DNA of 64,000 nucleotides from Spirochaetia bacterium (GTDB taxonomy: Bacteria; Spirochaetota; Spirochaetia; SZUA-6; Bin103). The notes beneath the pieces are model-generated. The model did no database searches. It saw only the letters and a program-made list of their open reading frames with translations, and had not been told where the DNA came from. The stretch spans positions 3,392,001 to 3,456,000 of the forward strand of contig OZ241863.1 of assembly GCA_965203055.1 (NCBI GenBank), in the 5' to 3' direction. Position 1 is the stretch's first letter. Every line of letters starts with the position of its first letter. The position numbers were made by a program, and so were the translations under genes. Positions 15,669 to 37,736 of the stretch are shown here, one piece after another.

Positions 15669-16206
15669 GCGCTACGAACGCTACCTCGCGCTGCCGTGGG
15701 AGCAGGACCTTGCCGGCGCCGAGCGGGTGATCTTCCTGGTCTACGACAAGAGCGACGAACGGCGCCTGCGCGCGCGCAAGACCCTCTTCGAGCTGGCCAC
15801 CAGGCGGGCCGGACACCACTGGCAGGAGTGCGATCTGACGGCGGCGTTCGCGCGCTGGATGGCCGGGATCGACTACCGCGACAGCTACTTCGAGGCGCCG
15901 GAAGATCTGGAACTCAAGCTCGAAGAGGACTTCGCGGAGTACGCGGCCGCCTGGGTCCGCGAGACATTGCGGTCGCCGCAAGCCGGCCGCGGCTCGGGCG
16001 GCTCGGTCACCGGCGTGTTCGGCATCGCCTCGCTGTTCGGGTTCGTCCGCCTGTCCGAGCTGATGAGGGCGGTCGAGCAGGACGTCGCCGGCCGCCTCGC
16101 GGTGTTCTTTCCGGGCGAATATGAAGACAGTCAGTACCGGCTGTTGAACGCTCGGGACGGCTGGAACTACCTGGCCGTGCCGATCACCGCGCACGACGAA
16201 CGATGA
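15643..16206 (+). CDS. brxB: BREX protein BrxB (DUF1788)
   Basis: GIASLFGF..GRLAVFFPGEYE..YRLLNARDGWNYLA; GGAG ribosome-binding site; ATGA overlap with brxC. Confidence 0.85.
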   Translation: MGRIDKLAERYERYLALPWEQDLAGAERVIFLVYDKSDERRLRARKTLFELATRRAGHHWQECDLTAAFARWMAGIDYRDSYFEAPEDLELKLEEDFAEYAAAWVRETLRSPQAGRGSGGSVTGVFGIASLFGFVRLSELMRAVEQDVAGRLAVFFPGEYEDSQYRLLNARDGWNYLAVPITAHDER

Positions 16207-21106: not shown

Positions 21107-21241
21107 GGCGCGCTCCGATCATTTCGTCAAGTCACGATTGAACAAGCCTCGACTAGACAAACCCGTGCCTGGCGGCGGTGGCGCTTGCCAAGTCCATGAC
21201 TGATCATGTACGCACTGCTTCAGTGAAGAAGTGGTGCTGCC

Positions 21242-22567
21242 ATGTCGGGAACGCGCCTCGCGCAACGGCGAGCGCAGGCTCGCTTCCTCTGGTTCGACGA
21301 GCAGACGGTACCGGAGACGGGGTTCGGTACGTTGGACGAGGCGCTGTGGAAGCCGCTGCTGAGCGCGCAGGGCGCCGCCGACCCCGCCCTTGCGCTGGAG
21401 AAGATGGGGTTGCTCGCGCGCGGCGTCACCGGCGCGGTGGAGGCGACCGTGGCAGGCCTGCTGCTGTGCAGTCAGGCGCCGGACGAGTGGCTGCCGAATG
21501 CCGCCATAACGGCGACGCACTACCGCGGCGTGGACCGCGCTTCAGGTCAGTTGGACGCCCAGACCATCACCGGACCGTTGAGCCGGCAGATTGCCGAGGC
21601 GGTCGCGTTCGCTGTCCGCAACATGCGGGTCGGCGCCTACAAGAGCCCGGCCCGTATCGACCTGCCGCAATACAGCGAACGCGCGCTGTTCGAAGCGATG
21701 GTCAACGCGGTGGCGCATCGGGACTACTCGATCCGGGGCAGCCGGATTCGCCTGTCGATGTTCGCCGATCGCATCGAGATCAACTCGCCCGGCGGGCTGG
21801 CGAATAATCTCGCGGTGGACACGATGGCCATGCGCCAATCCACGCGCAACGAAGCGCTCGCGTCGGCGCTCGGCCGCCTGCCGGTCGGCGCCGTCCGCGG
21901 GGCGGGCGAGCGGCGCTACTTCATGGAGCGGCGCGGTGACGGCGTGCCGACGATCCTGCGCGAGACGCGCGCGCTGAGCGGCAAGGCGCCGGAGTATCGG
22001 CTGATCGACAACTCCGATCTGTTTCTCACGCTGCCGGCGGCGGCGACCGTCCCTACCCCTGTCAGGATCGTCATCGCGGTGCGCAGCCGAGGCGCCGCCG
22101 TGCCGAACGTCGATCTGCTGGTGCTGATGCCGAACGAATCGTGGCGACGGGCGACGACCTGCGACGCCGGCGAGGCGGTGGTCGAGCTGCATCTTTCACA
22201 CCTCCCCGTCACCGTGTTCGCGGCCGCTGCCGGCTACGCGGCGCACCTGATTCGGGATTGGCAGCCGCGCCGCGGCGCGCTGACCATCGAGCTCGAACCG
22301 CTGCCGGACGGCGGCGCGGTCATCTTCCCGGACGCAACCGGCGAGATTCCCGGGCTTGCAGGGCGCCTCAACCCGGTGCGTGACCCGCTCGACCGCACCT
22401 TCCTCCATGCCTCCGGCATCGCGATCGACCAGGGCCGGCCGCAGCCCGTTCACTTCCTGCTCGGCGAGACCCTGCGGCTCACCGACGCCGATGGCCGCGA
22501 ACGGCTGGCCCGCATCATCGACGTCATCGGCCGCGCGGCCCTGATAGAGTACCGTCCCGTCGGGTAA
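21242..22567 (+). CDS. HATPase_c_4 (RecG C-terminal-like) protein of the AlbA_2/Schlafen family, apparently lacking the N-terminal AlbA_2 domain, with an extra C-terminal domain
   Basis: ALFEAMVNAVAHRDY, DRIEINSPG, RQSTRNE, MERRGDGV. The ORF begins in the linker region (FLWFDEQ), with no E-x4-E-x-K motif. Confidence 0.7.
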   Translation: MSGTRLAQRRAQARFLWFDEQTVPETGFGTLDEALWKPLLSAQGAADPALALEKMGLLARGVTGAVEATVAGLLLCSQAPDEWLPNAAITATHYRGVDRASGQLDAQTITGPLSRQIAEAVAFAVRNMRVGAYKSPARIDLPQYSERALFEAMVNAVAHRDYSIRGSRIRLSMFADRIEINSPGGLANNLAVDTMAMRQSTRNEALASALGRLPVGAVRGAGERRYFMERRGDGVPTILRETRALSGKAPEYRLIDNSDLFLTLPAAATVPTPVRIVIAVRSRGAAVPNVDLLVLMPNESWRRATTCDAGEAVVELHLSHLPVTVFAAAAGYAAHLIRDWQPRRGALTIELEPLPDGGAVIFPDATGEIPGLAGRLNPVRDPLDRTFLHASGIAIDQGRPQPVHFLLGETLRLTDADGRERLARIIDVIGRAALIEYRPVG

Positions 22568-22574
22568 CGCGCGC

Positions 22575-23741
22575 ATGCTCATACAACGGATCAAGCTGCA
22601 GAACCTGCTCTCGTTCGGCCCGGACGCTCAGGAGCTGGAGCTGCGGCCCCTCAACGTGCTGATCGGCCCCAACGGCTCCGGCAAGTCCAATCTGATCGAG
22701 GCCTTCCGGCTCCTGCGGGCCGCGCCGAAGGACCTCGTAGCGCCGATCCGCGCCGGCGGTGGAGCAGGCAACTGGCTCTGGCGAGGACAGCCACCGGCGG
22801 CCTCCGCCCGAATGGAGGCGGTAGTCGAGAATCCGCAGGGACGACAGCCGCTTCGGCATGCTCTTGCGTTTACGGCGAGCGGCCAACGCTTCGAGTTGAC
22901 GGAAGAAATCGTTGCAAACGAGCGGGCGTATCCGGGACGCTCACAACCGTACCTCTATTACGAATTCCGGTCAGGAAGGGCCACGCTGAACTATCGCTAC
23001 CCGAATGAGCGCGAGTTGCGCCTCGAGAATATCGAAATCGACCAATCGATACTGGCGCAGCGCAAGGACCCGGATCACTATCCCGAGCTCACCTACCTGG
23101 GGAAGACGCTCGGACAGATCCAATGCTACACCGAGTGGTCGTTCGGCCGGTCCACACCGTACCGACAACCGCAACCGACCGATCTTCCAAACAGCTATCT
23201 GTTGGAGAACGGAATGAACCTGGGCTTGATGTTGAGCCGTATGGCGCGGGAACCTCAGGTCAAGCGCCGGTTTCTCAACGCCCTCGGTCAGCTCTACGAA
23301 GGCTTGACGGATTATCACGTGAACGTCGAGGCCGGTACCGTCCAGGTCTTTCTCGAGGAGGGCGACCTTACCGTGCCGGCGTCCCGATTGTCCGATGGAA
23401 CGCTCCGCTATCTTTGCCTCCTGGCTATCCTCTGCGACCCCGCGCCGGCGCCGTTGATCTGTCTGGAAGAGCCCGAACTTGGATTGCATCCCGACGTACT
23501 CCCGGGGCTGGCCGAGCTGCTGCGCCAAGCGTCGGAACGGTGCCAGTTGATCGTCACCACGCACTCGGAGGTTCTCGTCGATGCGTTGACCGAGGTCCCG
23601 GACAGCGTGATCGTCTGCGAAAAGCAAGACGGGCAGACGACGTTGCAGCGCCTGCGAAAGGAGGCGCTGACCGAATGGCTGCAGCGATACCAGCTCGGAC
23701 AGCTCTGGGCCTCGGGTTCGATTGGCGGCAATCGCTGGTGA
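22575..23741 (+). CDS. AAA_21 / ABC-type ATPase
   Basis: IGPNGSGKSN, signature LSDGT, Walker B LEEPELGLHP, H-loop TTHS. Confidence 0.9.
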   Translation: MLIQRIKLQNLLSFGPDAQELELRPLNVLIGPNGSGKSNLIEAFRLLRAAPKDLVAPIRAGGGAGNWLWRGQPPAASARMEAVVENPQGRQPLRHALAFTASGQRFELTEEIVANERAYPGRSQPYLYYEFRSGRATLNYRYPNERELRLENIEIDQSILAQRKDPDHYPELTYLGKTLGQIQCYTEWSFGRSTPYRQPQPTDLPNSYLLENGMNLGLMLSRMAREPQVKRRFLNALGQLYEGLTDYHVNVEAGTVQVFLEEGDLTVPASRLSDGTLRYLCLLAILCDPAPAPLICLEEPELGLHPDVLPGLAELLRQASERCQLIVTTHSEVLVDALTEVPDSVIVCEKQDGQTTLQRLRKEALTEWLQRYQLGQLWASGSIGGNRW

Positions 23742-24352
23742 GTGTAACGGTATGTGTCGAAGGCGGCGGCGACTCGAGTACTCTGAAAAGGATGTGTCGA
23801 AAAGGCTTCAGTGAATTCTTTCGTAAGGCAGGGTTGGCCGGCCGCATGCCGAAGATCATCGCGGGCGGCGCACGGGACAACACCTACAAGGATTTTTGCG
23901 TCTTGGTCGGTGCCACGAACCGCGATTTCGTCATCCTGCTGGTCGATAGCGAAGCGCCGGTGTCCGGGAGTTCTGGCGTATGGGAACACTTGAAACGCCG
24001 TGACAAATGGACTCTGCCGGCCGGGGCCGCGGACGAGAACGCTCATCTCATGGTGCAGTGCATGGAGGCTTGGTTCCTTGCGGACAAGGCCACGTTGGCC
24101 GTGTTTTTCGGCAACGGCTTCAACGAGAACGCACTTCCCCGACGGGTAGAAGTCGAGAACATTCCGAAGAAGCAGCTTCTTGACAGTATCGAGAATGCGA
24201 CACGTTCGTGCAGGCCGAAAGGCAAGTATAGCAAGGGCCAGCACTCGTTCCATCTTCTTGGTCAAGTTGAACCGGAGAGGGTCACCGCGGTATCGCCATA
24301 TGCACGGCGTCTCATCGACACCCTGAAGAACAAGGCATCGGGTCGTGAATAA
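23738..24352 (+). CDS. DUF4276 family TOPRIM-like protein
   Basis: GTG start overlaps the ATPase stop (GTGA). VCVEGGGD, LLVDSE, VQCMEAWFLAD, YSKG.HS. Confidence 0.8.
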   Translation: MSVTVCVEGGGDSSTLKRMCRKGFSEFFRKAGLAGRMPKIIAGGARDNTYKDFCVLVGATNRDFVILLVDSEAPVSGSSGVWEHLKRRDKWTLPAGAADENAHLMVQCMEAWFLADKATLAVFFGNGFNENALPRRVEVENIPKKQLLDSIENATRSCRPKGKYSKGQHSFHLLGQVEPERVTAVSPYARRLIDTLKNKASGRE

Positions 24353-25047
24353 ACCTGTGGAGATCGAGTACCCCAGTTCGGACGGTGAGCCGGTGGCGGA
24401 AAGCAGCTTTCAACTCATCCCTCTGTTCTACGCCTTCGACGCGCTGCGGCGCCGCTATGCCGCTCGTGATGACGTGTTCGTAGCGGCCGTCCTGCTGTTG
24501 TACTACCAGGAGGGCAACCCGGCGGCGCGGGTGGCGCCGGACGTATTCGTGGTGCTCGGCGCGGAGAATCGCCCGCGCCACACGTACCAGTTGTGGAAGG
24601 AACCGAAGGGGCCGGACTTCGTGCTGGAGATCACCTCGGCAAGCACCAGGGACCGGGATCAGGGACCGAAGCGAGAGACGTACCGACAGTTGGGAGTGCG
24701 GGAGTACTTCCAGCACGACCCGACGTGGGACTATTTGGACCCGCCGTTGCAGGGGCTGGAACTGATCGGGGGAAGGTACGAGCTGCGGCCCGCCGGAGGA
24801 GCTGGCGGACGGAACTCTGCGGCTGGAGAGCAAGGTGCTGGGGCTGGAATTGCGGCAGGAGGCGGAGAGGCTGCGGTTCTACGATCCGGCGACGCAGGGC
24901 TATCTGCTGTCGTCGAAAGAACTAGAGCAGCAGCGGAAGTTGGAAGACGCCCTCTGGCAGGCGGAAGCCACCCGGAGACAGGCGGAAGCGCGCATCGCCG
25001 AACTTGAGGCGATACTCCGCGAGCGGGCTGAGAAGGGGCTAAAGTAG
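24345..25047 (+). pseudogene. Uma2 (DUF820) PD-(D/E)XK endonuclease, frameshifted near 24790
   Basis: YPSSDGEPVAES, VAPDVFVV, PDFVLEITS, LGVREYFQHDP in one frame. The canonical continuation LESKVLGLELR..LRFYDP is in another frame. Confidence 0.8.
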
Positions 25048-25194: not shown

Positions 25195-28100
25195 ATGACG
25201 ACCCTGTCAGCGGACCTGCGCCGGCAACTGGAGCGCACCGTCATGCAAGCGCGCCACGTCGCCGAGACCGGCGCCCGGGCGGCGCTGGAAGCGCTCGCCG
25301 TTGCCGAACCCCAGCCCTACGTTCACATGGACGGCGCGCAGCGCGACCTGCGCCTGCGGTTGCGCGCCCACGCCCGGCAGCTCGGCGACCGGCTCGGCGC
25401 CGCCGCGGGAGCACGGTCAATCGATCACGTGGTCTACGAGTGCGCCTTTGAGCACTGGCACGGCATGCTGTTCGCCCGCTTCCTGGCCGAGAACCACCTG
25501 CTGATCGAGCCGGAACTGGGCATCGAGGTCACCCTGGCCGAATGCGCGGAACTGGCGCAGGAGGAACAGGACGCCGACCAGTGGACGCTGGCCGCGCGCT
25601 TCGCCCAACGCATGCTGCCGCAAGTGTTCCGGCCCGACCACCCGGCTTTCGCGGTCCGCCTCGCCCGCGAACACCGGCTGGCGTTGGAGCGGCTGGTCGA
25701 GAGCCTGCCGGCGGAGGTGTTCGCGGCAGCCGACTCGCTCGGCTGGGTCTACCAGTTCTGGCAGTCCGGCCGTAAGGCCGAGGTGAACCGCTCCGAGGTC
25801 AAGATCGGTGCGGAAGAGATGCCCGCAGTGACGCAACTGTTCACCGAGCCCTACATGGTGAGCTTCCTGCTGGACAACTCCCTGGGGGCGTGGTGGGCGG
25901 CGCGCCGCCTGACCGACCTGAACGAGGCCGCGCTAACCGACGCCGGCACGGAATCGGAACTGCGCCGAGCGGTGGCGCTGCCCGGCGTGCCGCTCGACTA
26001 TCTGCGCTTCGTGCGCCACGACGAAGGAGAAGGAACAGGGCCTGCGCGGTGGCGCCCGGCAGCCGGCGCGTTCGACCGCTGGCCCGAGCAGCTCGGCGAC
26101 CTCAAGGTTCTGGACCCCTGCTGCGGTTCGGGTCACTTCCTGGTCGCCGCCTTGGGCATGCTGGTGCCGATGCGCATGGCAAGCGAGGGGCTGACCGCGC
26201 GCGCAGCCGTGGATGCGGTGCTGCGCGACAACCTGCACGGCCTGGAACTGGACCGACGCTGCGTGGAGCTGGCCGCGTTCGCCCTGGCGCTGGCCGCCTG
26301 GCGCTGGCCCGGCGCCGGCGGCTATCGGCCGCTGCCGTCGCTGAACGTGGCCTGCTCCGGGCTCGCGCCCAACGCGGCCAAGGAGGAGTGGATCACGTTG
26401 GCGGAGCAGGCCGCCGCCGGCGATACCGCGCTTTCGGCTCAGCTTCGCGGCAGCCTGGACGCGCTGCACGATCTGTTTCGGCAGGCGCCGCTGCTGGGCT
26501 CGCTGATCGACCCGCGGACGCTGAAGCGGGAGTTGTTTCAGGGTGACTACGAGTCGGTGCAGGCGCTGTTCGCCGCCGCGGCCGCATCGGAGCGCGCCAC
26601 CTTCGAGCAGACCGAGCGGGCGGTAGCGGCGCAGGGAATCGCGCGCGCCGCCGAGTTGCTGGCCGGCCGCTACCACCTCGTGATCACCAACGTTCCCTAC
26701 CTCACGCGCCGCAAGCAGAACAAAGATCTGCGCGCCTTCTGCGAAGCCCGCTACCCGGCCGCCAAGAACGATCTGGCCACCGTATACCTGGAACGTGCCT
26801 TGAGTCTGTGCGTAGAAGGAGGAACCGCCAGCTTGGTGCTGCCGCAGAACTGGCTGTTTCTCACGAGCTACCGACTGCTCCGCGAGAAGCTGCTCAAGCG
26901 CGAGGCGTGGCATCTGCTCGCCCGGCTGGGGGAAGGAGGATTCGAGTCATCCGCAGCCGCCGGCGCGTTTGCTGTGTTGCTTACGTTGAGCCGCGGCAGT
27001 CCGGCCGATCAACCACTCCGATTGTCCCGCAACCAGACAGCGGACCGCGGAGTATACGGTCTGGACGTTGCTGTAGCTCCAACCGCGAACCAGAAGGCCA
27101 AGCAGCTATTGACTGCGGAGATGACAGGATATCAGCAGCAGGAATACCTGCGAAATCCGAAGGCAGTCATTACGTCTGGCCGTCCTCCTGCAAGCGGAAT
27201 GCAGTTGGCAGAAGGCGCTGACTACGGCAAGGGCAGTACTACCGGTGACGCCCCGAGATTCCTGTCCTGCTTCTGGGAGTTTCCCGAAATCGCGTCCTAT
27301 CATGTCTTGTGGCTCAACTCGCCAAGTGAGCATGCATGGTCCGGAAGGACGCAGATTTGCACGGTGCCATTGAACCACGAGGACCTGAGCGTCCAGAGAG
27401 GATGTCGGATACACGGCCAGCGTGTCTTTGGTCGTCCCGGAGTCGCAGTCAACAAGATGCGGCGGTTGGAACCGTTTCTCTACGCCGGGGAAGTGTTCGA
27501 CGACAACGTATGCCCGATCGCACCGAAAGATGCTGGCCTGATCCCGGCCGTATGGTCATACGTCCAGTCGACTCACTATCACGACGATGTACGGTCCATT
27601 GACCAAAAGCTGAACGTTACGGCCGGGACGCTGACGTCCGTTCCCTTCGACCTGGACCGCTGGACCGAAGTCGCCGCCGAACAATATCCCAACGGCCTTC
27701 CGCTTCCCTACACCGACGATCCCACGCAGTGGATATTCCACGGCCATCCGTGCGGGTCGGTCATCTGGGACGAAACGACCAAACGCACCACCAACGGACC
27801 GTTCCGGCAGGATGCCGGCGTGCTGCAGGTCGCCGTCGCCCGCCTGCTCGGCTACCGCTGGCCGGCGGAACGGGACGATGCCATGGAACTGGCCCCGGAA
27901 CAGCGCGCCTGGGTCCGCCGCTGCGCCACGCTGCACCACTTCGCCGACCAGGACGGCATCGTCTGCCTGCCGGCGGTGCGCGGCGAACTGCCCGCTGCCG
28001 ACCGCCTGCTGCGCCTGCTGGCCGCCGCCTTCGGCGAAGCATGGAGCGACGCCACCCTCCCGCGCCTGCTCGCCGCTGCCGGCAGCGCCAGCCTCGACGA

Positions 28101-28815
28101 CTGGTTGCGCAACCGCTTCTTCGAGCAGCACTGCAAGCGATTCCATCACCGCCCGTTCGTCTGGCACGTCTGGGACGGCCGCCGCGACGGCTTTCACGCC
28201 CTGGTCAACTACCACAAGCTGGCAGCCGAGGGCCGTAAAGGCCGGCAGCTCCTTGAATCCCTCACCTACAGCTACCTGGGCGACTGGATCACGCGCCAGA
28301 AAGACGGCGTGGAACGCGGCGCCGCGGGCGCCGAGGATCGGCTTGCCGTCGCCTTTGCACTGCAACGGCGCCTCGCTGCCATCCTCGACGGCGAACCGCC
28401 GTTCGACCTGTTCATCCGCTGGAAGCCGCTCGCCCAACAACCGACCGGCTGGCACCCGGACGTCAACGACGGCGTACGGCTCAACATCCGTCCATTCATG
28501 GCCGCCGACCTCGACGGCGGCAAGAAGGGCGCCGGCATCTTGCGCGCCAAGCCGAACGTCCACTGGCGCAAGGACCGCGGCAAGGAACCCCGCACGCTGG
28601 CTGACGGCGGCAAGCCCTCGCCCTGGGCGCAAGACGACCGCGACCTGGACGACGACCGCGACCTGCGCCCCAAGGAAGACTACCCGTGGTTCTGGCACGG
28701 CGACCAGTTCACCGGCGACCGGGTAAACGACATCCATCTCACGAACGCCGAGAGATCAGCGCCCCGGGCTCATCCTATCTCGTACTACTTCTCACGGACG
28801 GCCCGTTCGATATAG
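25195..28815 (+). CDS. pglX: BREX adenine methyltransferase PglX (BrxX)
   Basis: PAVTQLFTEPYMV, SAM-binding VLDPCCGSGHF, catalytic ITNVPY, C-terminal FHHRPFVWH and DVNDGVRLNIRP. Confidence 0.9.
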   Translation: MTTLSADLRRQLERTVMQARHVAETGARAALEALAVAEPQPYVHMDGAQRDLRLRLRAHARQLGDRLGAAAGARSIDHVVYECAFEHWHGMLFARFLAENHLLIEPELGIEVTLAECAELAQEEQDADQWTLAARFAQRMLPQVFRPDHPAFAVRLAREHRLALERLVESLPAEVFAAADSLGWVYQFWQSGRKAEVNRSEVKIGAEEMPAVTQLFTEPYMVSFLLDNSLGAWWAARRLTDLNEAALTDAGTESELRRAVALPGVPLDYLRFVRHDEGEGTGPARWRPAAGAFDRWPEQLGDLKVLDPCCGSGHFLVAALGMLVPMRMASEGLTARAAVDAVLRDNLHGLELDRRCVELAAFALALAAWRWPGAGGYRPLPSLNVACSGLAPNAAKEEWITLAEQAAAGDTALSAQLRGSLDALHDLFRQAPLLGSLIDPRTLKRELFQGDYESVQALFAAAAASERATFEQTERAVAAQGIARAAELLAGRYHLVITNVPYLTRRKQNKDLRAFCEARYPAAKNDLATVYLERALSLCVEGGTASLVLPQNWLFLTSYRLLREKLLKREAWHLLARLGEGGFESSAAAGAFAVLLTLSRGSPADQPLRLSRNQTADRGVYGLDVAVAPTANQKAKQLLTAEMTGYQQQEYLRNPKAVITSGRPPASGMQLAEGADYGKGSTTGDAPRFLSCFWEFPEIASYHVLWLNSPSEHAWSGRTQICTVPLNHEDLSVQRGCRIHGQRVFGRPGVAVNKMRRLEPFLYAGEVFDDNVCPIAPKDAGLIPAVWSYVQSTHYHDDVRSIDQKLNVTAGTLTSVPFDLDRWTEVAAEQYPNGLPLPYTDDPTQWIFHGHPCGSVIWDETTKRTTNGPFRQDAGVLQVAVARLLGYRWPAERDDAMELAPEQRAWVRRCATLHHFADQDGIVCLPAVRGELPAADRLLRLLAAAFGEAWSDATLPRLLAAAGSASLDDWLRNRFFEQHCKRFHHRPFVWHVWDGRRDGFHALVNYHKLAAEGRKGRQLLESLTYSYLGDWITRQKDGVERGAAGAEDRLAVAFALQRRLAAILDGEPPFDLFIRWKPLAQQPTGWHPDVNDGVRLNIRPFMAADLDGGKKGAGILRAKPNVHWRKDRGKEPRTLADGGKPSPWAQDDRDLDDDRDLRPKEDYPWFWHGDQFTGDRVNDIHLTNAERSAPRAHPISYYFSRTARSI

Positions 28816-28824
28816 GATCAACCA

Positions 28825-30060
28825 ATGCAACCATCTCCCGCAATACATAATCCCGACCGCTACATGACGGCCTTTCGTCAAATCCTTTCCCAGGGCCGCA
28901 AGCGTATCGGGATCCTGATTGGTGCGGGAGCGCCAACGTCGATTCGCGACGACAGAGACAGTCCACTTATTCCGAATGTTGAAGGTCTCACAAATGCCGT
29001 AATAGACACAATGAACAGTGATGATCGTAAAGTAGTTGAATCTCTCAAGAAACAAATTAAGCAAACAGGAAAGACCATTAACATCGAAACAATACTTACG
29101 CAAGTTCGTTTACTCTCTCAGGCCCTTGGAAATTCGGAAGTTTATGGTCTGAATGGCGACGAATACGGCGAATTGGCACGCCGAATATGTAGTAAGATAG
29201 GTGAGATAGTAGGTGCTCGATTGCCTGTCTCACCTAATCCATATACAGAATTGGTGTCCTGGATATCGGGCACGCAAAGAGAACACTCGGTCGAAATTTT
29301 TACACCCAACTACGACTTGTTGATCGAGGAAGCCTTCGAGCGTTCCAGAGTTCCTTATTTCGATGGATTCAGCGGGTCCTATAGACCGTTTTTTGATGCG
29401 GCTAGCGTCTCTTCCGACGTACTACCGGCACGTTGGGCGCGTCTGTGGAAGCTCCACGGTTCATTGGGATGGAAGATATCAGATAATGCGGTAGTCAGAA
29501 CCGGTCGACGAAATGCAACCGAACTGATATATCCCGACCACCTTAAGTACGATCAAGTTAGGAGACTTCCGTATTCGGCATTATTCGAGCGACTTCGTAC
29601 GTTTCTTTTGATTTCGGATACACTTCTCATCTGTACCGGATTTTCGTTTCTTGATTCGCACATCTGTGCGGTATTGGACGAAGCATTGGCAGAAAACGCT
29701 CATACCGCGATATATGCTTTTCAGTACGGTGAACTCAGCAGAGAGTCGGCGGCTGCTCAGATTGCGCGGTCTCGACCCAATATCAGCATCTACGCTCCAG
29801 ACGGCGCGATCGTCAACGGCGTTAAGGGACTGTGGCGGTTAGGTCATCCTCCTAGCGCAGACTGGGAGGACATCCGTCAGACGTTCTGGAATACGACACC
29901 GAGTGATGGCCAGTATCCGTTTTTGCTAGGCGACTTCGCGATGCTAGCGAGATTCTTGGCATTGATCCAGGCTCCGCAGATAGCATCGTCGGCATCTGAC
30001 CAGAGATCGGACGACTCGGATCAGCTATCTATTCGGGAGCACCATGATGCTCAGTCGTGA
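28825..30060 (+). CDS. SIR2-family (SIR2_2) protein, putative NADase effector
   Basis: ILIGAGAP, FTPNYDLLIEEA, DGFSG, WKLHGSLGW, GFSFLDSHI. Confidence 0.9.
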   Translation: MQPSPAIHNPDRYMTAFRQILSQGRKRIGILIGAGAPTSIRDDRDSPLIPNVEGLTNAVIDTMNSDDRKVVESLKKQIKQTGKTINIETILTQVRLLSQALGNSEVYGLNGDEYGELARRICSKIGEIVGARLPVSPNPYTELVSWISGTQREHSVEIFTPNYDLLIEEAFERSRVPYFDGFSGSYRPFFDAASVSSDVLPARWARLWKLHGSLGWKISDNAVVRTGRRNATELIYPDHLKYDQVRRLPYSALFERLRTFLLISDTLLICTGFSFLDSHICAVLDEALAENAHTAIYAFQYGELSRESAAAQIARSRPNISIYAPDGAIVNGVKGLWRLGHPPSADWEDIRQTFWNTTPSDGQYPFLLGDFAMLARFLALIQAPQIASSASDQRSDDSDQLSIREHHDAQS

Positions 30061-31879
30061 TCCCACATATCTTGGCACGATAGAAGCGGTGTCGGGCGCT
30101 GCGCTCAACGTTCATCTTGCTCCGTCCGTGGCTTCGGGACTGTCAATTATCAAGGGACAGACCTATAGGGTTGGCCAAGTGGGCAGCTTCGTCAGAGTTC
30201 CGCAGGGTTATCAAGACTTGTTCGGGGTCATTTCAGAAGTTGGAGCTAGCGCCGTGCCTGATCAGTTTGATCCCGGCACTGACACTGGACGCTGGATGAA
30301 GATTGAGCTAGTTGGTGAGACTGTCGGCCAGACGTTCGAGCGGGGAGTGAGTCAGTATCCCAACATAGGGGATGCCGTTCACTTGGCAATCGAGGAGCAT
30401 CTACGAAGTATCTATGACGTACGAGGCCATGGCTATGTTGTGATAGGGGCACTTTCCAGTGCGGAGAGCATTTCGGCAAAGGTAGCGCTTAACGAGCTGG
30501 TGACAAGACACTCGGCAGTCCTCGGATCCACCGGATCCGGCAAGTCTACAACGATAGCCAGTCTGCTTCGGGCGATTACCACGGTTAATGATGGGAATGA
30601 TCAATACCCTAGCGCACGAGTCATGGTCCTCGACATACATGGAGAATACTCCGTGCCTCTTGCGGACGTATCGCAGGTGTTCAGCGTCGAGCCACAGTAT
30701 GAAGAAGAGCGCTTGTATATACCCTATTGGGCGCTGGATACTGGCGACCTGCTGGATTTCTTGACTGGGGGAGTGCAGGACAACCAAGCGGCTGCCTTTA
30801 CTGACAAGATTTTTAACCTGAAGGTGGCTTCGCACCAAGCACAGCGGTTTCCAGGTGTCGATCGCGCCTCGATAACCGTTGATACGCCACTTCCATACAG
30901 CCTCAAGAGGCTTTGGCACGAACTCATCGATGTTGAGATCGCGACCTTCGAAGGAAAAGATCGTGATCAGTCTACATGCTACGATCGGGGAAACGCAGAT
31001 ATGCTCGATCGACCGAAGTACAGGCCGCATGCGATGGGATCCGCGGGGCCGTTCTTGAATCCACTGGCTCGCGGAATCGTGCGCCCCCTGGACTTGTTGC
31101 GTTCACGACTGCTTGATCGCCGCTACGACTTTCTTTTGTGTCCCGGCCCGTGGGAACCCGACCTTACTGGTAAGCCGCGGAAAGATCTGGATGAACTTCT
31201 CGGCGACTGGCTCGGCGGCGAAAAACCGATCACCATCCTGGATCTGTCGGGCGTTCCGAGTGGCGTCCTTGAACGCCTCGTGGGCTCGATACTCAAGATC
31301 GTCTACGAAGCGCTGTTCTGGAGCCGCGAGAAGACCGAAGGCGGGATCGAGCGTCCGCTGCTGATCGTGATGGAGGAAGCCCATCGCTACATGTCGAGCC
31401 GATCGGCAGGCACCGCCTCGGAAGTAATTCAACGAATCGCGAAGGAGGGCCGTAAGTACGGCGTGGGCGCTATGGTTGTCAGTCAGCGGCCCTCTGATGT
31501 GGACGAGACGGTGTTGTCGCAGTGCGGTACTTTTTTCGCGCTGCGGCTATCAAACCCCGAAGACCGAGCTCGTGTACGAGGTACGCTACCGGACGGTCTT
31601 GTCGGCCTTCTTGACGTTCTGCCAATTCTCCGCACAGGAGAAGCCATCGTCACCGGCGAAGCGGCAAAGCTGCCGATGCGCTGTCGCGTGACGCTTCCAT
31701 CGAAGAAACACCGGCCTCGTAGCGAGGATCCGGAGATCAGCAAGAAGTGGGGACTTCAGAGGCGCGAGGAAGGCTATCAACGGGTCGTGGCTTCATGGAG
31801 ATCGCAGAGCCCTATCGCGGTTACCAAGGAGTTGGATTTGCAGCGAACCCAGGTCGAGGATGACTCGGCCGTAGATTAG
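30044..31879 (+). CDS. HerA-family ATPase/helicase (HAS barrel + DUF87)
   Basis: N-terminal HAS-barrel-like region, HSAVLGSTGSGKS, LDIHGEY, VMEEAHRY, KEGRKYGVGAMVVSQRPS. Confidence 0.92.
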   Translation: MMLSRDPTYLGTIEAVSGAALNVHLAPSVASGLSIIKGQTYRVGQVGSFVRVPQGYQDLFGVISEVGASAVPDQFDPGTDTGRWMKIELVGETVGQTFERGVSQYPNIGDAVHLAIEEHLRSIYDVRGHGYVVIGALSSAESISAKVALNELVTRHSAVLGSTGSGKSTTIASLLRAITTVNDGNDQYPSARVMVLDIHGEYSVPLADVSQVFSVEPQYEEERLYIPYWALDTGDLLDFLTGGVQDNQAAAFTDKIFNLKVASHQAQRFPGVDRASITVDTPLPYSLKRLWHELIDVEIATFEGKDRDQSTCYDRGNADMLDRPKYRPHAMGSAGPFLNPLARGIVRPLDLLRSRLLDRRYDFLLCPGPWEPDLTGKPRKDLDELLGDWLGGEKPITILDLSGVPSGVLERLVGSILKIVYEALFWSREKTEGGIERPLLIVMEEAHRYMSSRSAGTASEVIQRIAKEGRKYGVGAMVVSQRPSDVDETVLSQCGTFFALRLSNPEDRARVRGTLPDGLVGLLDVLPILRTGEAIVTGEAAKLPMRCRVTLPSKKHRPRSEDPEISKKWGLQRREEGYQRVVASWRSQSPIAVTKELDLQRTQVEDDSAVD

Positions 31880-31889
31880 GAGGGATATC

Positions 31890-32102
31890 TTGGAGAAGCA
31901 GCGTGTCTCGTCTTCTACGGTGATGTCGATAGGATACGACCGCCAGACTGAGACGCTCGAGATCGAGTTCGGGAGCGGCCGCGTATACCAGTACTATGGC
32001 GTTCCTGACAACCTGCACAACGAGATAATGCAGACGCCGTCGAAGGGGCAGTTCTTCAATACTTACATCAGGGATCAATATCCGTATTCACGGGTGGGGT
32101 GA
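31890..32102 (+). CDS. KTSC domain protein
   Basis: VSSSTVMSIGYD..LEIEF.SGRVYQYYGVP..SKGQFFN..IRD; AGGAGG ribosome-binding site upstream of a TTG start. Confidence 0.92.
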   Translation: MEKQRVSSSTVMSIGYDRQTETLEIEFGSGRVYQYYGVPDNLHNEIMQTPSKGQFFNTYIRDQYPYSRVG

Positions 32103-32116
32103 CCGGCGGGTGATCG

Positions 32117-33325
32117 ATGACGATCGAATGGCCTGAGGTCGAGCGGCGCATCGCCGGCGGGGAGGACGACCGTACCGAGTTCAAGCGCGGGATCGGAGAC
32201 CTGCGCGCGGTTGCCCGGACGCTGTGCGCGTTCGCCAACGGCGCCGGCGGGCTGCTCGTGATCGGCGTCGATGACCGCGGCGCGGTTGCCGGCGTGGCCG
32301 CGGACGCCGAATCGGTGCAGGAACGGCTGACCGGCCTGCTGCACACCGCCTGCGGCAAGCCGGTCACCGCGCGCTGCGGGCGGCGCGACACCGGCGCCGG
32401 CTGGGTGCACTGGATCGCCGTGCACCGCCATCAGCGCGGCTACGAACCGTTCGCGTACGACGGCCGCTTCTGGATCCGGCGCGGCCGCGCCACCGTCGCG
32501 CCGTCGCCGTCCGAGCTGCAGGAGCTGTTCAACACCTTCGGGTTCGTGCTCACCGAGCGTCAGATCATCCCCTCGGCGACGGTCGAGGAGATCGACTTCG
32601 GCGCCGTGCGCTCCTTCATGCGGGCGCAGGGCCTCGATACCGAGCGCGAGCCGCAGCCGGCGCGCGCGGACGACCTGCGCAACGCCAGCGTCGCCGACGA
32701 GCTGGACGGCGCGCTGCGCCCCACGCTGTATGGCGCGATGGTGTTCGGGCGCGACCCGCAGGGGTATCCCCACACCTTGAACCTGTTCGTGCAGTGCGTC
32801 CGCTACGGCGGCCTTGACCAGGCGGCCGCGGTGCTGAGCGCGGGCGAGGGCAAGGGCCGCCTGGAAGATCAGGTGACGCGCGCCATGGGGTGGTTTCGCA
32901 GCCTGGGCCGGCGCGAAGTCTACGAGGGGCTCTACCGCCGCGACCTGCCGCTGCTGCCGGAGGACGCGCTGCGCGAGGCGCTGGTCAACGCCGTCATCCA
33001 CCGCGACTACGCCCTCACCGGGTCGCCGGTCCTGCTGGAGGTGTTCGACGACCGCATCGCGGTGACCAGCCCCGGCGCGCTGCCCAACCACATGACGGTG
33101 CAGCAGGCGCGCCTGGGCGGCGCGCCGCGCTCCCGCAACGAGATGATGGCGAACGCCATGGTGGTGCGCCGGCTGATGGAGCGGCGCGGGCGCGGCTGGT
33201 TGATGATGCGCCACGCCATGCGGCGCTTCAACGGGACCGAGCCGGCGCTCCACAACGACGAGCGCGACCGCTTCGTGCGGGTGACGTTCGATCTGCGGCC
33301 GGCTCCCGCGGCAGGCGGCGCGTGA
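32117..33325 (+). CDS. Schlafen/AlbA_2 + HATPase_c_4 protein
   Basis: GEDDRTEFK, CAFANGAGGLLVIGVDD, ALREALVNAVIHRDY, TSPG, SRNE, MERRGRG. Confidence 0.88.
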   Translation: MTIEWPEVERRIAGGEDDRTEFKRGIGDLRAVARTLCAFANGAGGLLVIGVDDRGAVAGVAADAESVQERLTGLLHTACGKPVTARCGRRDTGAGWVHWIAVHRHQRGYEPFAYDGRFWIRRGRATVAPSPSELQELFNTFGFVLTERQIIPSATVEEIDFGAVRSFMRAQGLDTEREPQPARADDLRNASVADELDGALRPTLYGAMVFGRDPQGYPHTLNLFVQCVRYGGLDQAAAVLSAGEGKGRLEDQVTRAMGWFRSLGRREVYEGLYRRDLPLLPEDALREALVNAVIHRDYALTGSPVLLEVFDDRIAVTSPGALPNHMTVQQARLGGAPRSRNEMMANAMVVRRLMERRGRGWLMMRHAMRRFNGTEPALHNDERDRFVRVTFDLRPAPAAGGA

Positions 33326-35685
33326 CGGCCGACGTGACGCCGGGCGCTGCGGCGCCGGGCGTCGAAACGACGGTCGTCGAGGCGCTGGCCGCGGCGCTCG
33401 CCGGCGCCGCCCGCTTCGATCCCGATGACGTGGTGCGGCCGGCCGCGGTCCTGTGGACCGATCCCGCGGCGCAGTGGCAACCGGTCGTGCCCCACCTGCG
33501 CCGGTTCGCGCCGCACCTGCTGGCGCTCGGCGAGTACGATGCCGAGCAGCGCACCGGGCCGTCGATCTGGCTGCGCTGCGTAATCGAGCGGACCCTGGAC
33601 GCGCCCCGCATCCCCGATGCGGCGACCCCGATCCTCTATCTGCCCGGCGTGAGCCGCCAGCAACTCGGCGCGGCGCAGACCTGCCCCCGGCGCCTGCAGC
33701 CGCTGGTGGAACTGCAGTACCGCGGCGCCTGCTGGACGCAGAAGAACGGCCGAGACTGGACGGTGGAGGCATTCCTCACCTCCCGGGCCGGCGGCCTGGG
33801 GCTGGACATGGCCCGGGATGCCGCGACGCGGCAGGCAATGCTGCGCGCCGTGGCGGAGTTGGCGCTCGCGCCGCTGCCGGCGCTGCGCGGCCGGCGGCTG
33901 GACGCGCAGGACTTCGACGGTCTGTTGTCGGATGATCCGATCAAGGACCTGCTGTCCTGGCTCGGCGACCCGCAGGCGATCATGACCGGCTGGGAGGCGG
34001 CGCGCCGGGACGCCTTCGCCGCGCGCTGCCGCGCGGACTTCGACTTCGATCCCGCCGGCGACGGCGAACTGGTCGCCGCCGAGCGGCTCGGCCGGCGCGA
34101 CGGGCCATGGCAAGCGGTCTGGAACCGGTTCGCCGAGGCGCCGGCGCGGTATCCCGGGGTGCCGGCACTGCTGCGCCGCGCGCGGCCCGACGACCTGTTC
34201 GCGGAGCGCTCGTCGTGGCCGCAGGAGAACGAAGCGGACGAAGCGGCGCTGCGGCGCCGCCTTGCGGCCTGCGCCGGCCGCTCGCCCGCCGCCGCGCGCG
34301 CCGAGCTCCGCGCGCTCGAACAGGAGCACGGCCAACGCCGCGGCTGGGTGTGGGCCGCGCTCGGGCAGGCGCCGCTGGCGTACGCGCTGGAGCACGTGGC
34401 GCTGATCGCCGCGCGCACCGCGGAGCAGCTCGGCGGGGCGTCGGCCGCCGAGCTGGCCCGCGGCTACGCGGCCGGCGCGTGGCAGGTCGATGCCGCCGCG
34501 CTCGCCGCGATGGAGGCGGTGAAGTCCGCCGCCGACCGAAAGGCGGTGAGCGCGGCGCTGCAGGCCGTCTATCTGCCGTGGCTGGAAGCTGCGGCGCGGC
34601 GGCTGCAGGCGCTGGCCGAGCAGGAGCCGCGCGCCCTCCGCGACCCGCCGGAGCGCTACGCCGCGCGCGACCAACCCGGTACGGCGATCCTGTTCGCCGA
34701 CGGCCTGCGGTTCGACGTTGCGCAGCGGCTGGCCGCGCGCCTGCGCGCCGACGGCCGCACGGTGCGGGTGGAGACCCGCTGGGCGGCGCTGCCGACCGTG
34801 ACCGCCACCGCCAAGCCGGCGGTCGCTCCGGTTGCCGAACAGATCGCCGGCGCCTCCCCGGGCGAGGAGTTCCGGCCGGCAGGCGCGGACGACGGCCGCC
34901 CGTTGACCGCCGCCCGGTTCCGCAAGCTCCTGACCGCCGCCGGCTACCGGTACCTCGCCGCGGACGAGACCGGCGACCCGGCGGGCCGCGCCTGGACCGA
35001 GCACGGCCAGCTCGACCGGCTGGGCCACTCGCTGCAGGCCGGGCTCGCCGCCGGCCTCGACGACCAGCTCGGCCTGCTGCGCGAACGCGCCGGAGCGCTG
35101 CTCGACGCCGGCTGGCGGGAAGTGCGGGTGGTGACCGATCACGGCTGGCTGTGGCTGCCCGGCGGCCTGCCCAAGGTCGAGCTGCCCCGCTACCTCACCG
35201 CCACCCGCTGGGCGCGATGCGCGGCCATCGCCGGCGATTCGGCGGTCGAGACGCCGGTCGTGGCGTGGCATTGGAACGCCGGTGAACGGATCGCGGTGCC
35301 TCCCGGCGTCGCCTGCTTCACCGCCGGCTGTGAGTACGCGCACGGCGGGGTGAGCCTCCAGGAAAGCCTGATTCCGGTCTTGCGGGTCGCGGCCGGCGCG
35401 GGCGCCGCCCCTGCGCCCACCGCCATTACCGCGCTATCCTGGGTAGGGCTGCGCTGCCGGGTGCGCATCGCCGCGCCGCCGCCGGGCGCGGCCGTCGACC
35501 TGCGCACGCGGGTGGCCGACGCCGCGGCGAGCATCGACCGGGCGCGGCCGGTCGACGCGCAGGGAGCGGCGAGCCTGCTGGTGGCGGACGACGAGCTGGA
35601 AGGCGCCTCGGCCGTGGTGGTGGTGCTGGACGCCGGCGGCCGGGTCGTGGCGCGGCAATCGACCATTGTCGGGGGCGGAGATTGA
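33322..35685 (+). CDS. pglZ: BREX-1 phosphatase/nuclease PglZ (type B-like)
   Basis: GTG start overlapping the previous stop. LFADGLRFD, PTVTATAK, VVTDHGW, YAHGGVSLQE. Confidence 0.9.
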   Translation: MTADVTPGAAAPGVETTVVEALAAALAGAARFDPDDVVRPAAVLWTDPAAQWQPVVPHLRRFAPHLLALGEYDAEQRTGPSIWLRCVIERTLDAPRIPDAATPILYLPGVSRQQLGAAQTCPRRLQPLVELQYRGACWTQKNGRDWTVEAFLTSRAGGLGLDMARDAATRQAMLRAVAELALAPLPALRGRRLDAQDFDGLLSDDPIKDLLSWLGDPQAIMTGWEAARRDAFAARCRADFDFDPAGDGELVAAERLGRRDGPWQAVWNRFAEAPARYPGVPALLRRARPDDLFAERSSWPQENEADEAALRRRLAACAGRSPAAARAELRALEQEHGQRRGWVWAALGQAPLAYALEHVALIAARTAEQLGGASAAELARGYAAGAWQVDAAALAAMEAVKSAADRKAVSAALQAVYLPWLEAAARRLQALAEQEPRALRDPPERYAARDQPGTAILFADGLRFDVAQRLAARLRADGRTVRVETRWAALPTVTATAKPAVAPVAEQIAGASPGEEFRPAGADDGRPLTAARFRKLLTAAGYRYLAADETGDPAGRAWTEHGQLDRLGHSLQAGLAAGLDDQLGLLRERAGALLDAGWREVRVVTDHGWLWLPGGLPKVELPRYLTATRWARCAAIAGDSAVETPVVAWHWNAGERIAVPPGVACFTAGCEYAHGGVSLQESLIPVLRVAAGAGAAPAPTAITALSWVGLRCRVRIAAPPPGAAVDLRTRVADAAASIDRARPVDAQGAASLLVADDELEGASAVVVVLDAGGRVVARQSTIVGGGD

Positions 35686-37736
35686 GACTCACACTCGATG
35701 ACCTGGACCGGCGCGCGGCGCAGGTGTTCGACGGGTATCTGGTACGCAAGGACCTGGTTCGCAAGTACAGCCGCCAGTATCCGGTGCCCACCTACGTCGT
35801 CGAGTTTCTGCTCGGCCGCTACTGCGCCACGACCGACGAGCGGGAGATCGAGGAGGGGCTGGAGATCGTCGAACGGCAGCTTGCCGACCGCACGGTGCGC
35901 ACCGGCGAGGAGGAGCTGGTCAAGGCGCGGGCGCGCGACCGCGGCTCCATCAAGCTGATCGACCTGGTCAAGGCGCGCCTGGACGCGCGCACCGACTCGC
36001 TGCTGGCCGAGCTTCCCGCGCTGGCGATCCGGGACGCCCGCATCGACGACGATCTGGTGCGGCGGCACGAGCGCATGCTCACCGACGGCTTCTACGCCGA
36101 GGTCACCCTGAGCTACGACGCGGCCATCGCGCAGGAGAAGAACGGACGCCCGTTCGCGATCGATGCCGTGCGCGCCATTCAGCTTTCGCACGCCGACGTC
36201 CTGGAGACCCTGCAGCGCGCCCGCCGCGAGCTCGACAGCGGCCAATGGCGGCGCCTGCTGTTGCGCAGCGTCGGTCTGGAGCCGGCCGCGCTCAGCGCGC
36301 GGGCGCAGTTGGTCGCGCTGGTGCGCATGGCGCCGTTCGTGGAGCGCAACTACAACCTGGTGGAGCTGGGGCCGCGCGGCACCGGCAAGAGCCACCTGTT
36401 CCAGCAGATCTCCCCCTACGCCCATCTGATATCCGGGGGCAAGGCGACGGTGGCGAAGATGTTCGTCAACAACGCCACCGGCCAGCGGGGGCTGGTCTGC
36501 CAGTACGACGTGGTCTGCTTCGACGAGATTTCCGGCGTCTCCTTCGATCAGAAGGACGGCGTGAACATCCTCAAGGGGTACATGGAATCGGGCGAGTTTT
36601 CGCGCGGCAAGGAGAGCATCCGCGCGGACGGCGGCGTGGTGATGGTCGGCAACCTCGATGCCGACGCCGCGCAGCAGCAACGCGCCGGCCACCTGTTCAG
36701 CCCGCTGTCCGCGGACCTGCGCGACGACACCGCGTTCATGGACCGCATTCACGCCTACGTGCCGGGCTGGGACTTCCCCAAGCTCGATCCGCGCGCGCAC
36801 TTCACCGATCACTTCGGACTGGTCAGCGACTTCCTGGCGGAGTGCTGGAGCCGGCTGCGCGCCGGCAGCCGCGTCCCGGCGCTGCAGGGCCGGGTGCACT
36901 TCGGCGGCGCGCTCAGCGGGCGCGACCTCACTGCGGTCAACAAGACGGTGAGCGGTCTGCTCAAGCTGCTCTACCCGGACCCGGCGATGCCGGTGCCGGA
37001 CGACGAGCTGGAGGAGCTGGTGCGCATCGCCCTGGAAGTGCGCCGCCGCGTCAAGGAGCAGCAGAAGCGGGTGTTCAAGAGCGAGTTCCGCAACACCCAC
37101 TTCAGTTACGCCCTGGGCGAGGCCGGGATCGAACGGTTCGTGTCCACGCCGGAGCTGGGCAGCGACGATGCCATCGACCCGGATCCGCTGCCGCCGGGTC
37201 AGGTGTGGGGCATCGGCCCCGGCGGGCCGGAGACCGGCCCGGCGCTCTACCGCATCGAGGTGACGGTCGGCCCGGGCAGCGGCGTCCGCATCCTCAACGC
37301 CCCGGTACCGCCGGCGTTCCGCGAGAGTACCCGCTACGCCGAGCAGAACCTGTACGCCCGCGCGCGCGAGCTGGTCGGCGACCGCGACCCGCGCGCCCAC
37401 GAGTTTTCGGTGCAGCTCCGCGCCATGGACCACGACCGCTCCGGCGCGGCGCTCGGGCTGCCGGCGCTGCTGGCGCTGTGCGGCGCGCTGCTGGAGCAGA
37501 GCCTCAAGGGCGGCCTGATCGTGGTCGGCGGGCTCAACCTGGGCGGATCGGTGGAACCGCTCGCCAATGCGGTCGGCGTCGTCGAAGCGGCGGTCGAGAA
37601 GGGCGCCGGCACGGTGCTGCTCCCCGTTTCGGCGCGCCGGCGCCTGTTCGACCTCTCCGACGACATGGCCACGCGCGTCAATCTGCAGTTCTACGGCGAC
37701 GCGCCCGACGCCCTGTTCAAGGCCCTCCTGAAATAG
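35682..37736 (+). CDS. brxL: BREX Lon-like protein BrxL
   Basis: VPTYVVEFLLGRYC, ELGPRGTGKS, VCFDE, FMDRIHAYVPGW, C-terminal Lon-like domain. Confidence 0.92.
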   Translation: MRLTLDDLDRRAAQVFDGYLVRKDLVRKYSRQYPVPTYVVEFLLGRYCATTDEREIEEGLEIVERQLADRTVRTGEEELVKARARDRGSIKLIDLVKARLDARTDSLLAELPALAIRDARIDDDLVRRHERMLTDGFYAEVTLSYDAAIAQEKNGRPFAIDAVRAIQLSHADVLETLQRARRELDSGQWRRLLLRSVGLEPAALSARAQLVALVRMAPFVERNYNLVELGPRGTGKSHLFQQISPYAHLISGGKATVAKMFVNNATGQRGLVCQYDVVCFDEISGVSFDQKDGVNILKGYMESGEFSRGKESIRADGGVVMVGNLDADAAQQQRAGHLFSPLSADLRDDTAFMDRIHAYVPGWDFPKLDPRAHFTDHFGLVSDFLAECWSRLRAGSRVPALQGRVHFGGALSGRDLTAVNKTVSGLLKLLYPDPAMPVPDDELEELVRIALEVRRRVKEQQKRVFKSEFRNTHFSYALGEAGIERFVSTPELGSDDAIDPDPLPPGQVWGIGPGGPETGPALYRIEVTVGPGSGVRILNAPVPPAFRESTRYAEQNLYARARELVGDRDPRAHEFSVQLRAMDHDRSGAALGLPALLALCGALLEQSLKGGLIVVGGLNLGGSVEPLANAVGVVEAAVEKGAGTVLLPVSARRRLFDLSDDMATRVNLQFYGDAPDALFKALLK

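Follow-up and report, generated by a model that had tools for sequence, protein, structure and literature searches.

In a window of 64,000 nucleotides (nt) from a high-GC genome of a Spirochaetia bacterium (assembly GCA_965203055.1, contig OZ241863.1, positions 3,392,001 to 3,456,000; GC 0.699 across the whole window), we found a genuine SIR2-HerA system, apparently intact and of the Paenibacillus type, in a split form with three genes and situated within a bacteriophage exclusion (BREX) operon. The third gene encodes a small KTSC-domain protein and, as judged by comparison of sequences and structures, it is the final domain of the reference HerA in the shape of an independent gene rather than a novel type of component. 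The locus thus very probably encodes abortive infection by SIR2-HerA as in Paenibacillus sp. 453MF, except that the last HerA domain is made from a separate, translationally coupled gene. The features of the cassette, in window positions, are the following.

28825..30060, + strand: SIR2-family NADase gene, 411 amino acids (aa) (Pfam, PADLOC and PDB 8w9l matches)
30044..31879, + strand: HerA ATPase/translocase gene, 611 aa, without KTSC tail (Pfam, PADLOC and PDB 8wiv matches)
31877..31882, + strand: AGGAGG ribosome-binding site, 7 nt 5' of the KTSC start (read from the sequence)
31890..32102, + strand: KTSC gene, 70 aa, TTG start (Pfam, 8wiv residues 629-696, AlphaFold2 model)

The cassette and its third gene

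The SIR2 protein was identified by Pfam SIR2_2 (PF13289, E 2e-18) and the PADLOC model PDLC04094 (E 6.5e-158), and HerA by the Pfam domains DUF87 (4e-29) and HerA_C (2.5e-9) together with PDLC04105 (E 1.1e-158). The KTSC protein covers the entire PF13619 profile (positions 1-58 of 58; E 1.6e-23, 82.6 bits with a cut-off of 25) and matched none of the models in PADLOC-DB 2.0. Residues N162, D164 and H211 are kept in SIR2, where the motifs TPNYDLL and WKLHGS align opposite N163/D165/H212 of the Paenibacillus enzyme, the roles of which are described in the available passages of PMC11472057. In HerA, the Walker A motif GSTGSGKS and the motif EEAHRY are invariant in an alignment of 26 HerA sequences.

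The three genes are tightly packed. SIR2 and HerA overlap by 17 nt, the HerA stop codon TAG (31877-31879) is contained in the AGGAGG site, and KTSC follows HerA after a gap of 10 nt with a change of frame, equipped with its own ribosome-binding site and the start codon TTG, upstream of which the reading frame extends by no more than 5 codons. An initial annotation, made from the letters of the window and a list of its open reading frames, had given the extent of the block (28825..32102), the overlap, the gap and the ribosome-binding site correctly, as well as the GC counts of two 60-nt lines (20/60 at 29041-29100 and 51/60 at 26281-26340). Its description of a cassette more AT-rich than its surroundings, with host-like GC resuming after KTSC, is also borne out at the level of genes, i.e. 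0.50-0.56 in the cassette (SIR2 0.495, HerA 0.564, KTSC 0.535) versus 0.67-0.77 in the neighbors (PglX 0.672, a downstream AlbA_2 gene 0.729, PglZ 0.768). The GC break is located between KTSC and the AlbA_2 gene, not 5' of KTSC. There is no second KTSC gene in the host genome, the copy in the window being the only one.

By sequence search against the PDB, window HerA residues 6-589 were found to match residues 10-604 of the 8wiv chain (E 1.3e-169), while KTSC residues 2-69 match residues 629-696 of the same protein (E 1e-17). Since the HerA match ends at 604 and the KTSC match starts at 629, the break falls in a linker. SIR2 in turn matches 8w9l (E 7.4e-76). An AlphaFold2 model of KTSC, built from 58 sequences, has a predicted local distance difference test score (pLDDT) of 96.4 and superposes on the stand-alone crystal structures 7X8C and 4RGI with template modeling (TM) scores of 0.96 and 0.93, respectively, at 41-43% identity. 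It likewise superposes on parts of the chains 8wld_D/L/M, 8wiv_M/O/L/D, 8wof_B and 8wj3_N (TMq 0.73-0.90, root-mean-square deviation 1.1-2.4 Å, 46-53% identity), and the module is consequently resolved in the cryo-electron microscopy maps of 8WLD, 8WIV, 8WOF and 8WJ3. As the KTSC module is part of the solved HerA of 8WIV and 8WLD, the reference system that is described as having two genes already contains KTSC. The initial annotation had taken KTSC to be an extra, third component, a view that does not survive this homology with the C-terminal domain of the Paenibacillus HerA (residues 629-696), which is resolved in 8WIV/8WLD.

The available passages of PMC11472057 divide the Paenibacillus HerA into a beta-barrel, a RecA-like domain, a helix bundle and a "C-terminal arm domain (aa 576-696)", the latter wrapping around the neighboring RecA-like domain and stabilizing the split-spiral hexamer. 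The region goes there under the name of arm domain, and the word KTSC has no occurrence in the paper. Stabilization of the HerA hexamer is also the only published statement on the arm region that we found, in these same passages. Nor did the fold itself provide a functional lead, since no relatives beyond the KTSC family were identified: a VIA-align search over 48,161 chains returned only 7x8c (Z 15.4), with all others at Z < 5 and none outside the family. Binding of single-stranded nucleic acid by KTSC domains, given as established in the initial annotation, turned out to be less secure than that, the literature found holding only predictions. The domain is predicted to be "DNA-binding" in the consulted part of PMC9503650 and "RNA-binding" in that of PMC7824862, where it is found in jumbo phages, and no experimental paper on nucleic-acid binding by KTSC was found in the searchable literature.

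KTSC among the relatives of HerA

By employing an alignment of eight HerA sequences in a metagenome scan, we obtained 80 loci with 30-74% identity. Seven of them were not judgeable, six having less than 250 nt after HerA (L034, L054, L071, L073, L085 and L088) and one having a HerA match that reaches the contig end (L063). Among the 73 judged loci, KTSC was a separate gene in 50, fused to HerA in five (L028, L041, L042, L056 and L068) and lacking in 18. All 55 judged members of the HerA clade to which the window belongs had KTSC, as opposed to none of the 18 loci outside this clade, and PF13619 was found in none of the 116 HerA tails and downstream open reading frames (ORFs) of the KTSC-negative loci (Pfam, E <= 0.01). 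In the clade, the split layout apparently is the commoner natural form, with 50 of the 55 judged metagenome members. How often KTSC accompanies SIR2-HerA homologs was a check put forward in the initial annotation, and the 50 separate and five fused genes are its answer; that KTSC came in along with SIR2-HerA and is part of the system, as was likewise suggested there, fits both its position 3' of HerA in every judged clade relative and its equally low GC.

A FastTree phylogeny of HerA (79 rows, each covering at least 480 residues) placed the presence of KTSC as a single change, in one clade of 57 rows (50 split, five fused, two not judgeable) with a support of 100, although FastTree support values count for less than those of a bootstrap and a number of long branches are found outside this clade. 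Three changes were needed for fused versus split. A second survey covered a phylum sample of 401 genomes (HerA criterion PDLC04105 at E <= 1e-30, the genome of the window not counted), of which 18 had HerA; the four HerA proteins closest to that of the window had KTSC downstream and the other 14 did not. Likewise, KTSC was directly 3' of HerA in all four genome-record relatives (73-83% identity).

At the protein level, 118 of the 120 best HerA homologs (76-100% identity) end near 610 aa without PF13619, and the remaining two, P0073 and P0117, are HerA-KTSC fusions at 79% identity. PF13619 was found in none of 43 scanned HerA representatives at the 50% identity level. Conversely, 17 longer proteins with a close KTSC comprised 12 full HerA-KTSC fusions, two fragments with HerA_C and KTSC from short contigs, and three with PF13619 only, and among these no fusion partner other than HerA was identified. 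In 58 split loci, the frame of KTSC relative to HerA was +2 in 33, +1 in 13 and 0 in 12. The occurrence of all three frames means that in these loci KTSC is a normal cistron of its own rather than the product of a single recurrent frameshift.

Each of the 42 KTSC-positive metagenome loci that extend far enough upstream has SIR2 there, and so does each of eight genome loci. The flanks of the trio are unrelated between loci, and the cassette moves laterally as a unit, its place in the window being the interval between pglX and pglZ. A Mantel test on 37 loci, all having HerA and SIR2 in full length and one of an identical pair being left out, gave r 0.66 between the distances of HerA and KTSC, which 0 of 999 permutations reached, and r 0.93 between those of HerA and SIR2; the correlation of HerA with KTSC shows co-inheritance, not contact. 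In RefSeq, the trio is annotated as "SIR2 family protein", "ATP-binding protein" and "KTSC domain-containing protein" on the Escherichia coli C5 IncF plasmid and on a Rhizobium johnstonii plasmid. At megablast sensitivity, the plasmid trio was found in one of 5,426 complete E. coli genomes. A supposed cross-phylum transfer for L001-L004, from metagenome-assembled genomes labeled Spirochaetia, Vicinamibacterales and Longimicrobiales, was dropped because the match statistics of L001 and L003 are the same as those of G415 and G414, two genomes from the family to which the window belongs. The identical pairs are L001 and L138 (G415), and L003 and L142 (G414), and the taxon labels are a poor guide to kinship. 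Furthermore, the genes 3' of KTSC were varied in 36 metagenome loci, including e.g. ArdC, methylases and transposases; a DUF3375 gene occupied this position in two of them (L041 5248-6720 and L067 5288-6778).

Two other readings of the layout can be weighed against this survey. One is that the split results from a sequencing or assembly frameshift in a HerA-KTSC gene that is truly fused, for which the fused forms at 79% identity (P0073 and P0117) and the 714-aa open frame of a relative in the host's family, G421, could be cited. Against it, the split recurs in 58 independent loci and in all three relative frames, nearly all of the closest HerA homologs (118 of 120) stop at about 610 aa, and the window KTSC has its own AGGAGG and start, with a frame open for just five codons upstream, all of which makes such an artifact hardly credible. 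The other is that KTSC is an unrelated passenger, present 3' of HerA by chance. The KTSC family is indeed broad, and only 4 of the 29 KTSC loci examined in the phylum sample follow HerA. Nevertheless, KTSC is present in all judged clade members despite unrelated flanks, fusions to HerA recur, and the module belongs to a solved HerA structure; a chance neighbor is accordingly most improbable, and the survey refutes it as far as comparative data allow.

The BREX operon and KTSC genes without HerA

The cassette sits inside a complete type 1 BREX operon, between pglX and pglZ. The set of brxA, brxB, brxC, pglX, pglZ and brxL that makes up type 1 is present in one orientation, each gene with a PADLOC match. 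A second block of inserted genes (19982-25007) is found between brxC and pglX. In order along the window, the genes surrounding the cassette are the following.

14829-15668, + strand: BrxA (PADLOC, one of the set PDLC02450/PDLC02469/PDLC02489 for BrxA/BrxB/BrxC)
15604-16206, + strand: BrxB (PADLOC, same set)
16203-19667, + strand: BrxC (PADLOC, same set)
19982-21199: ORF without family match, brxC-pglX block
21242-22567: AlbA-like/HATPase_c_4 gene, brxC-pglX block
22575-24352: HEC-01A/HEC-01B pair (AAA_21 and DUF4276), brxC-pglX block
24345-25007: Uma2/PDC-S03 nuclease-like gene, brxC-pglX block
25195..28815, + strand: PglX methyltransferase (PADLOC PDLC02528, E 0), ending 9 nt before SIR2
32117..33325, + strand: Schlafen/AlbA_2 and HATPase_c_4 gene (Pfam PF04326 and PF13749), 14 nt 3' of KTSC, host-like GC
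about 33364-35685, + strand: PglZ (PADLOC PDLC02566, E 1.8e-295)
35682-37736, + strand: BrxL (PADLOC PDLC02506, E 5.8e-282)

Co-transcription of the cassette with BREX is plausible. A scan of 28000-33500 for consensus promoters and terminators gave numbers at chance (2 versus 1.8 expected and 2 versus 3.4 expected, respectively), and no tRNA genes were found within the window. Elsewhere in the host genome, at C1:656250-659733, there is DNA 90-94% identical to most of pglX (query 1-1736 and 1938-3568), which points to a second copy of PglX or of BREX.

DNA comparison of 40 relatives, with 24 genomes making up the host's family, revealed that the interval between pglX and KTSC is variable (compare 28816-32116 of the window, which includes KTSC). 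In G415, G414 and G421 it holds SIR2-HerA, as in the window, and in G421 (L140/L155) HerA and KTSC form the single 714-aa open frame, so that a fused form stands beside split relatives in one family. Other members have other cargo or nearly none. In G411 (L145), the interval is only 375 nt with a small ORF, followed by KTSC (90% identical to that of the window), AlbA2 (98.8%), PglZ and BrxL. In G410 (L143), genes for a ThsB-like TIR protein and an 8xMP membrane protein precede KTSC (67%) and AlbA2 (91%), and in G412 (L144) UvrD fragments, transposases and insertion sequences, DarT and an ADP-ribosylglycohydrolase protein are followed by KTSC (76%) and a degenerate AlbA2. Neither G410 nor G412 has a PDLC04105 HerA anywhere in its genome. 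Two further KTSC genes, 71% and 74% identical, have an FG-GAP repeat gene in front of them in G418 (L147, 4540-6277) and G423 (L146, 6265-6474), outside both BREX and SIR2-HerA contexts; in G418, KTSC is again followed by an AlbA_2/HATPase_c_4 gene. Taken together, the family has 12 KTSC genes in 11 of its 24 genomes, with HerA upstream of five and not of the other seven. The orphan KTSC genes just described are intact, keep the invariant or nearly invariant residues of the 58-sequence alignment and have the lower GC of the cassette. Their pairwise dN/dS is 0.1-0.3; as the paths compared include time spent inside a trio, this does not demonstrate selection on the orphans themselves.

Further KTSC genes were seen away from HerA. 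At L110 (607-2104), a KTSC close to the HerA-linked type, with no HerA nearby, lies between genes for an NlpC/LRAT-like peptidase and a SAVED-domain protein, beside a helix-turn-helix/IrrE-like gene. A divergent KTSC occurs in all eight small genomes (1.0-1.8 Mb) of genus g9 in the phylum sample (L125-L131 and L133), at a similar position in the seven that have it on contig C1, which suggests a housekeeping subfamily unrelated to HerA.

The orphans are the main ground for assigning KTSC a role of its own, as a sensor or regulator (as proposed in the initial annotation) or as a partner of the Schlafen/AlbA_2-HATPase_c_4 protein or of BREX, with its adjacency to HerA reflecting no more than a common cargo slot. 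Intact KTSC genes without SIR2-HerA occupy the same BREX slot behind other cargo in G411, G410 and G412 and follow an FG-GAP gene in G418 and G423, an AlbA_2/HATPase_c_4 gene is 3' of KTSC in four of these five orphans (degenerate in G412), two of the genomes are devoid of PDLC04105 HerA, and the dN/dS values are low. On the other hand, these values include trio time, and the AlbA_2/HATPase_c_4 neighbor seems to be local: among the 36 KTSC-positive metagenome loci that continue for 900 nt or more 3' of KTSC (99 ORFs scanned), none has it, and all have HerA 5' of KTSC. HerA is moreover every KTSC fusion partner identified, and the GC break comes after KTSC and before AlbA2. In the light of this, we consider an own role of this kind improbable as an account of the locus. 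The orphans may have arisen from cargo exchange, by recombination ending just before KTSC and leaving it as a scar, or KTSC may be of some value without HerA. There is a slightly larger, though still small, chance that KTSC does more than serve as the tail of HerA, given that in the host's family it stays intact beside the AlbA_2 gene, on the right-hand side of the BREX interval, whatever the cargo. It might have a HerA-independent job, e.g. as a small nucleic-acid-binding adaptor shared between defense modules, or else be a recombination anchor for cargo exchange.

Several points nevertheless weigh against reading KTSC as a detached HerA domain. In the host's family, 7 of the 12 KTSC genes have no HerA upstream, and five of these seven are intact and 67-90% identical to that of the window. 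Persistence without SIR2-HerA is not what one would expect of a HerA subunit with a structural role only, unless the orphans are recent leftovers. Furthermore, the consulted part of PMC11472057 regards helices alpha19-20 and their linker, all retained in the window HerA, as the main source of contacts between subunits, and no truncation of the arm is among its passages.

The split system and its known relatives

In the fused Paenibacillus system, a HerA hexamer and a SIR2 ring of 12-14 subunits form a complex of about 1.1 MDa, and infection leads to depletion of nicotinamide adenine dinucleotide (NAD+) and thereby abortive infection (available passages of PMC11472057 and of the preprint by Garb et al.). 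By analogy, the same machine would in the window be assembled from three polypeptides instead of two. KTSC would be made by translational coupling to HerA, and its 70 residues would dock non-covalently on the HerA ring at the position of 8WIV residues 629-696, as a stoichiometric third subunit. Once docked, it would complete the HerA arm, with nucleic acid as a possible further binding partner.

This has modest practical bearing, as SIR2-HerA of this clade is catalogued and cloned in the form of a gene pair, and a model for the third gene is absent from PADLOC-DB 2.0. Whoever moves just sir2 and herA out of a split locus would lose a domain of the solved complex. The split form is, by the same token, a natural experiment on the role of the KTSC module, while the orphans of the BREX slot may be a sign of cargo exchange within BREX operons or of a wider role for the KTSC domain family.

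The closest experimentally studied systems besides that of Paenibacillus are those of E. coli, i.e. SIR2-HerA/Nezha (8J4U) and types I-III (PMC13434337), which according to the parts of the literature consulted belong to the same superfamilies and follow the same logic of abortive infection by NAD+ depletion. The window is only distantly related to Nezha 8J4U (HerA E 5e-29 in two stretches, SIR2 E 4e-11 over 84 residues), too distant to speak of close similarity. As far as the consulted text goes, the 2026 classification of E. coli Sir2-HerA defines systems by sir2-herA adjacency (PMC13434337); its main text contains none of the terms "KTSC", "third gene", "three-gene" or "accessory", although the supplements may list neighboring genes. 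A HerA-like ATPase coupled with a separate KTSC gene is mentioned among conflict systems by Iyer, Burroughs, Anantharaman and Aravind (2022, PMC9503650). In the variant of that passage, which cites unpublished observations, an endoDNase replaces the sirtuin, whereas the window has SIR2. The endoDNase form was not found in the loci searched, where SIR2 was present in every locus judged upstream (42/42 and 8/8). In the full-text literature search, two papers name KTSC, SIR2 and HerA together, PMC9503650 and PMC7824862, both from the Aravind group. Across the 22 papers that contain KTSC as a whole word, the remark in the former was the only link found between KTSC and HerA, and the split three-gene layout was otherwise undescribed in the texts covered. 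The initial annotation likewise knew of no such described subtype. What the layout represents is very probably a gene-fission form of a known system.

As for the stand-alone KTSC proteins of known structure, 7X8C from Methanolobus vulcani and 4RGI from Yersinia pestis (YPO2434) share both fold and length with that of the window; no paper citing either entry was found in the searchable literature. HerA proteins outside the window clade differ from that of the window in having no KTSC, which holds for all 18 judged loci from metagenomes and all 14 from the phylum sample.

The nearest known relative is the SIR2-HerA system of Paenibacillus sp. 453MF (8WIV, 8WLD and 8W9L; PMC11472057), which falls in the same clade as the window and has the SIR2 triad and the HerA Walker motifs in common with it. 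The sir2 and herA genes overlap in both, by 17 nt in the window and by 26 nt in Paenibacillus, the latter value being given in the available passages of PMC11472057. The window does not have KTSC and HerA in one polypeptide, as the two-gene form does, and herein lies the main difference: in Paenibacillus, KTSC makes up residues 629-696 of a 696-aa HerA, while in the window it is a separate protein of 70 aa next to a HerA of 611 aa.

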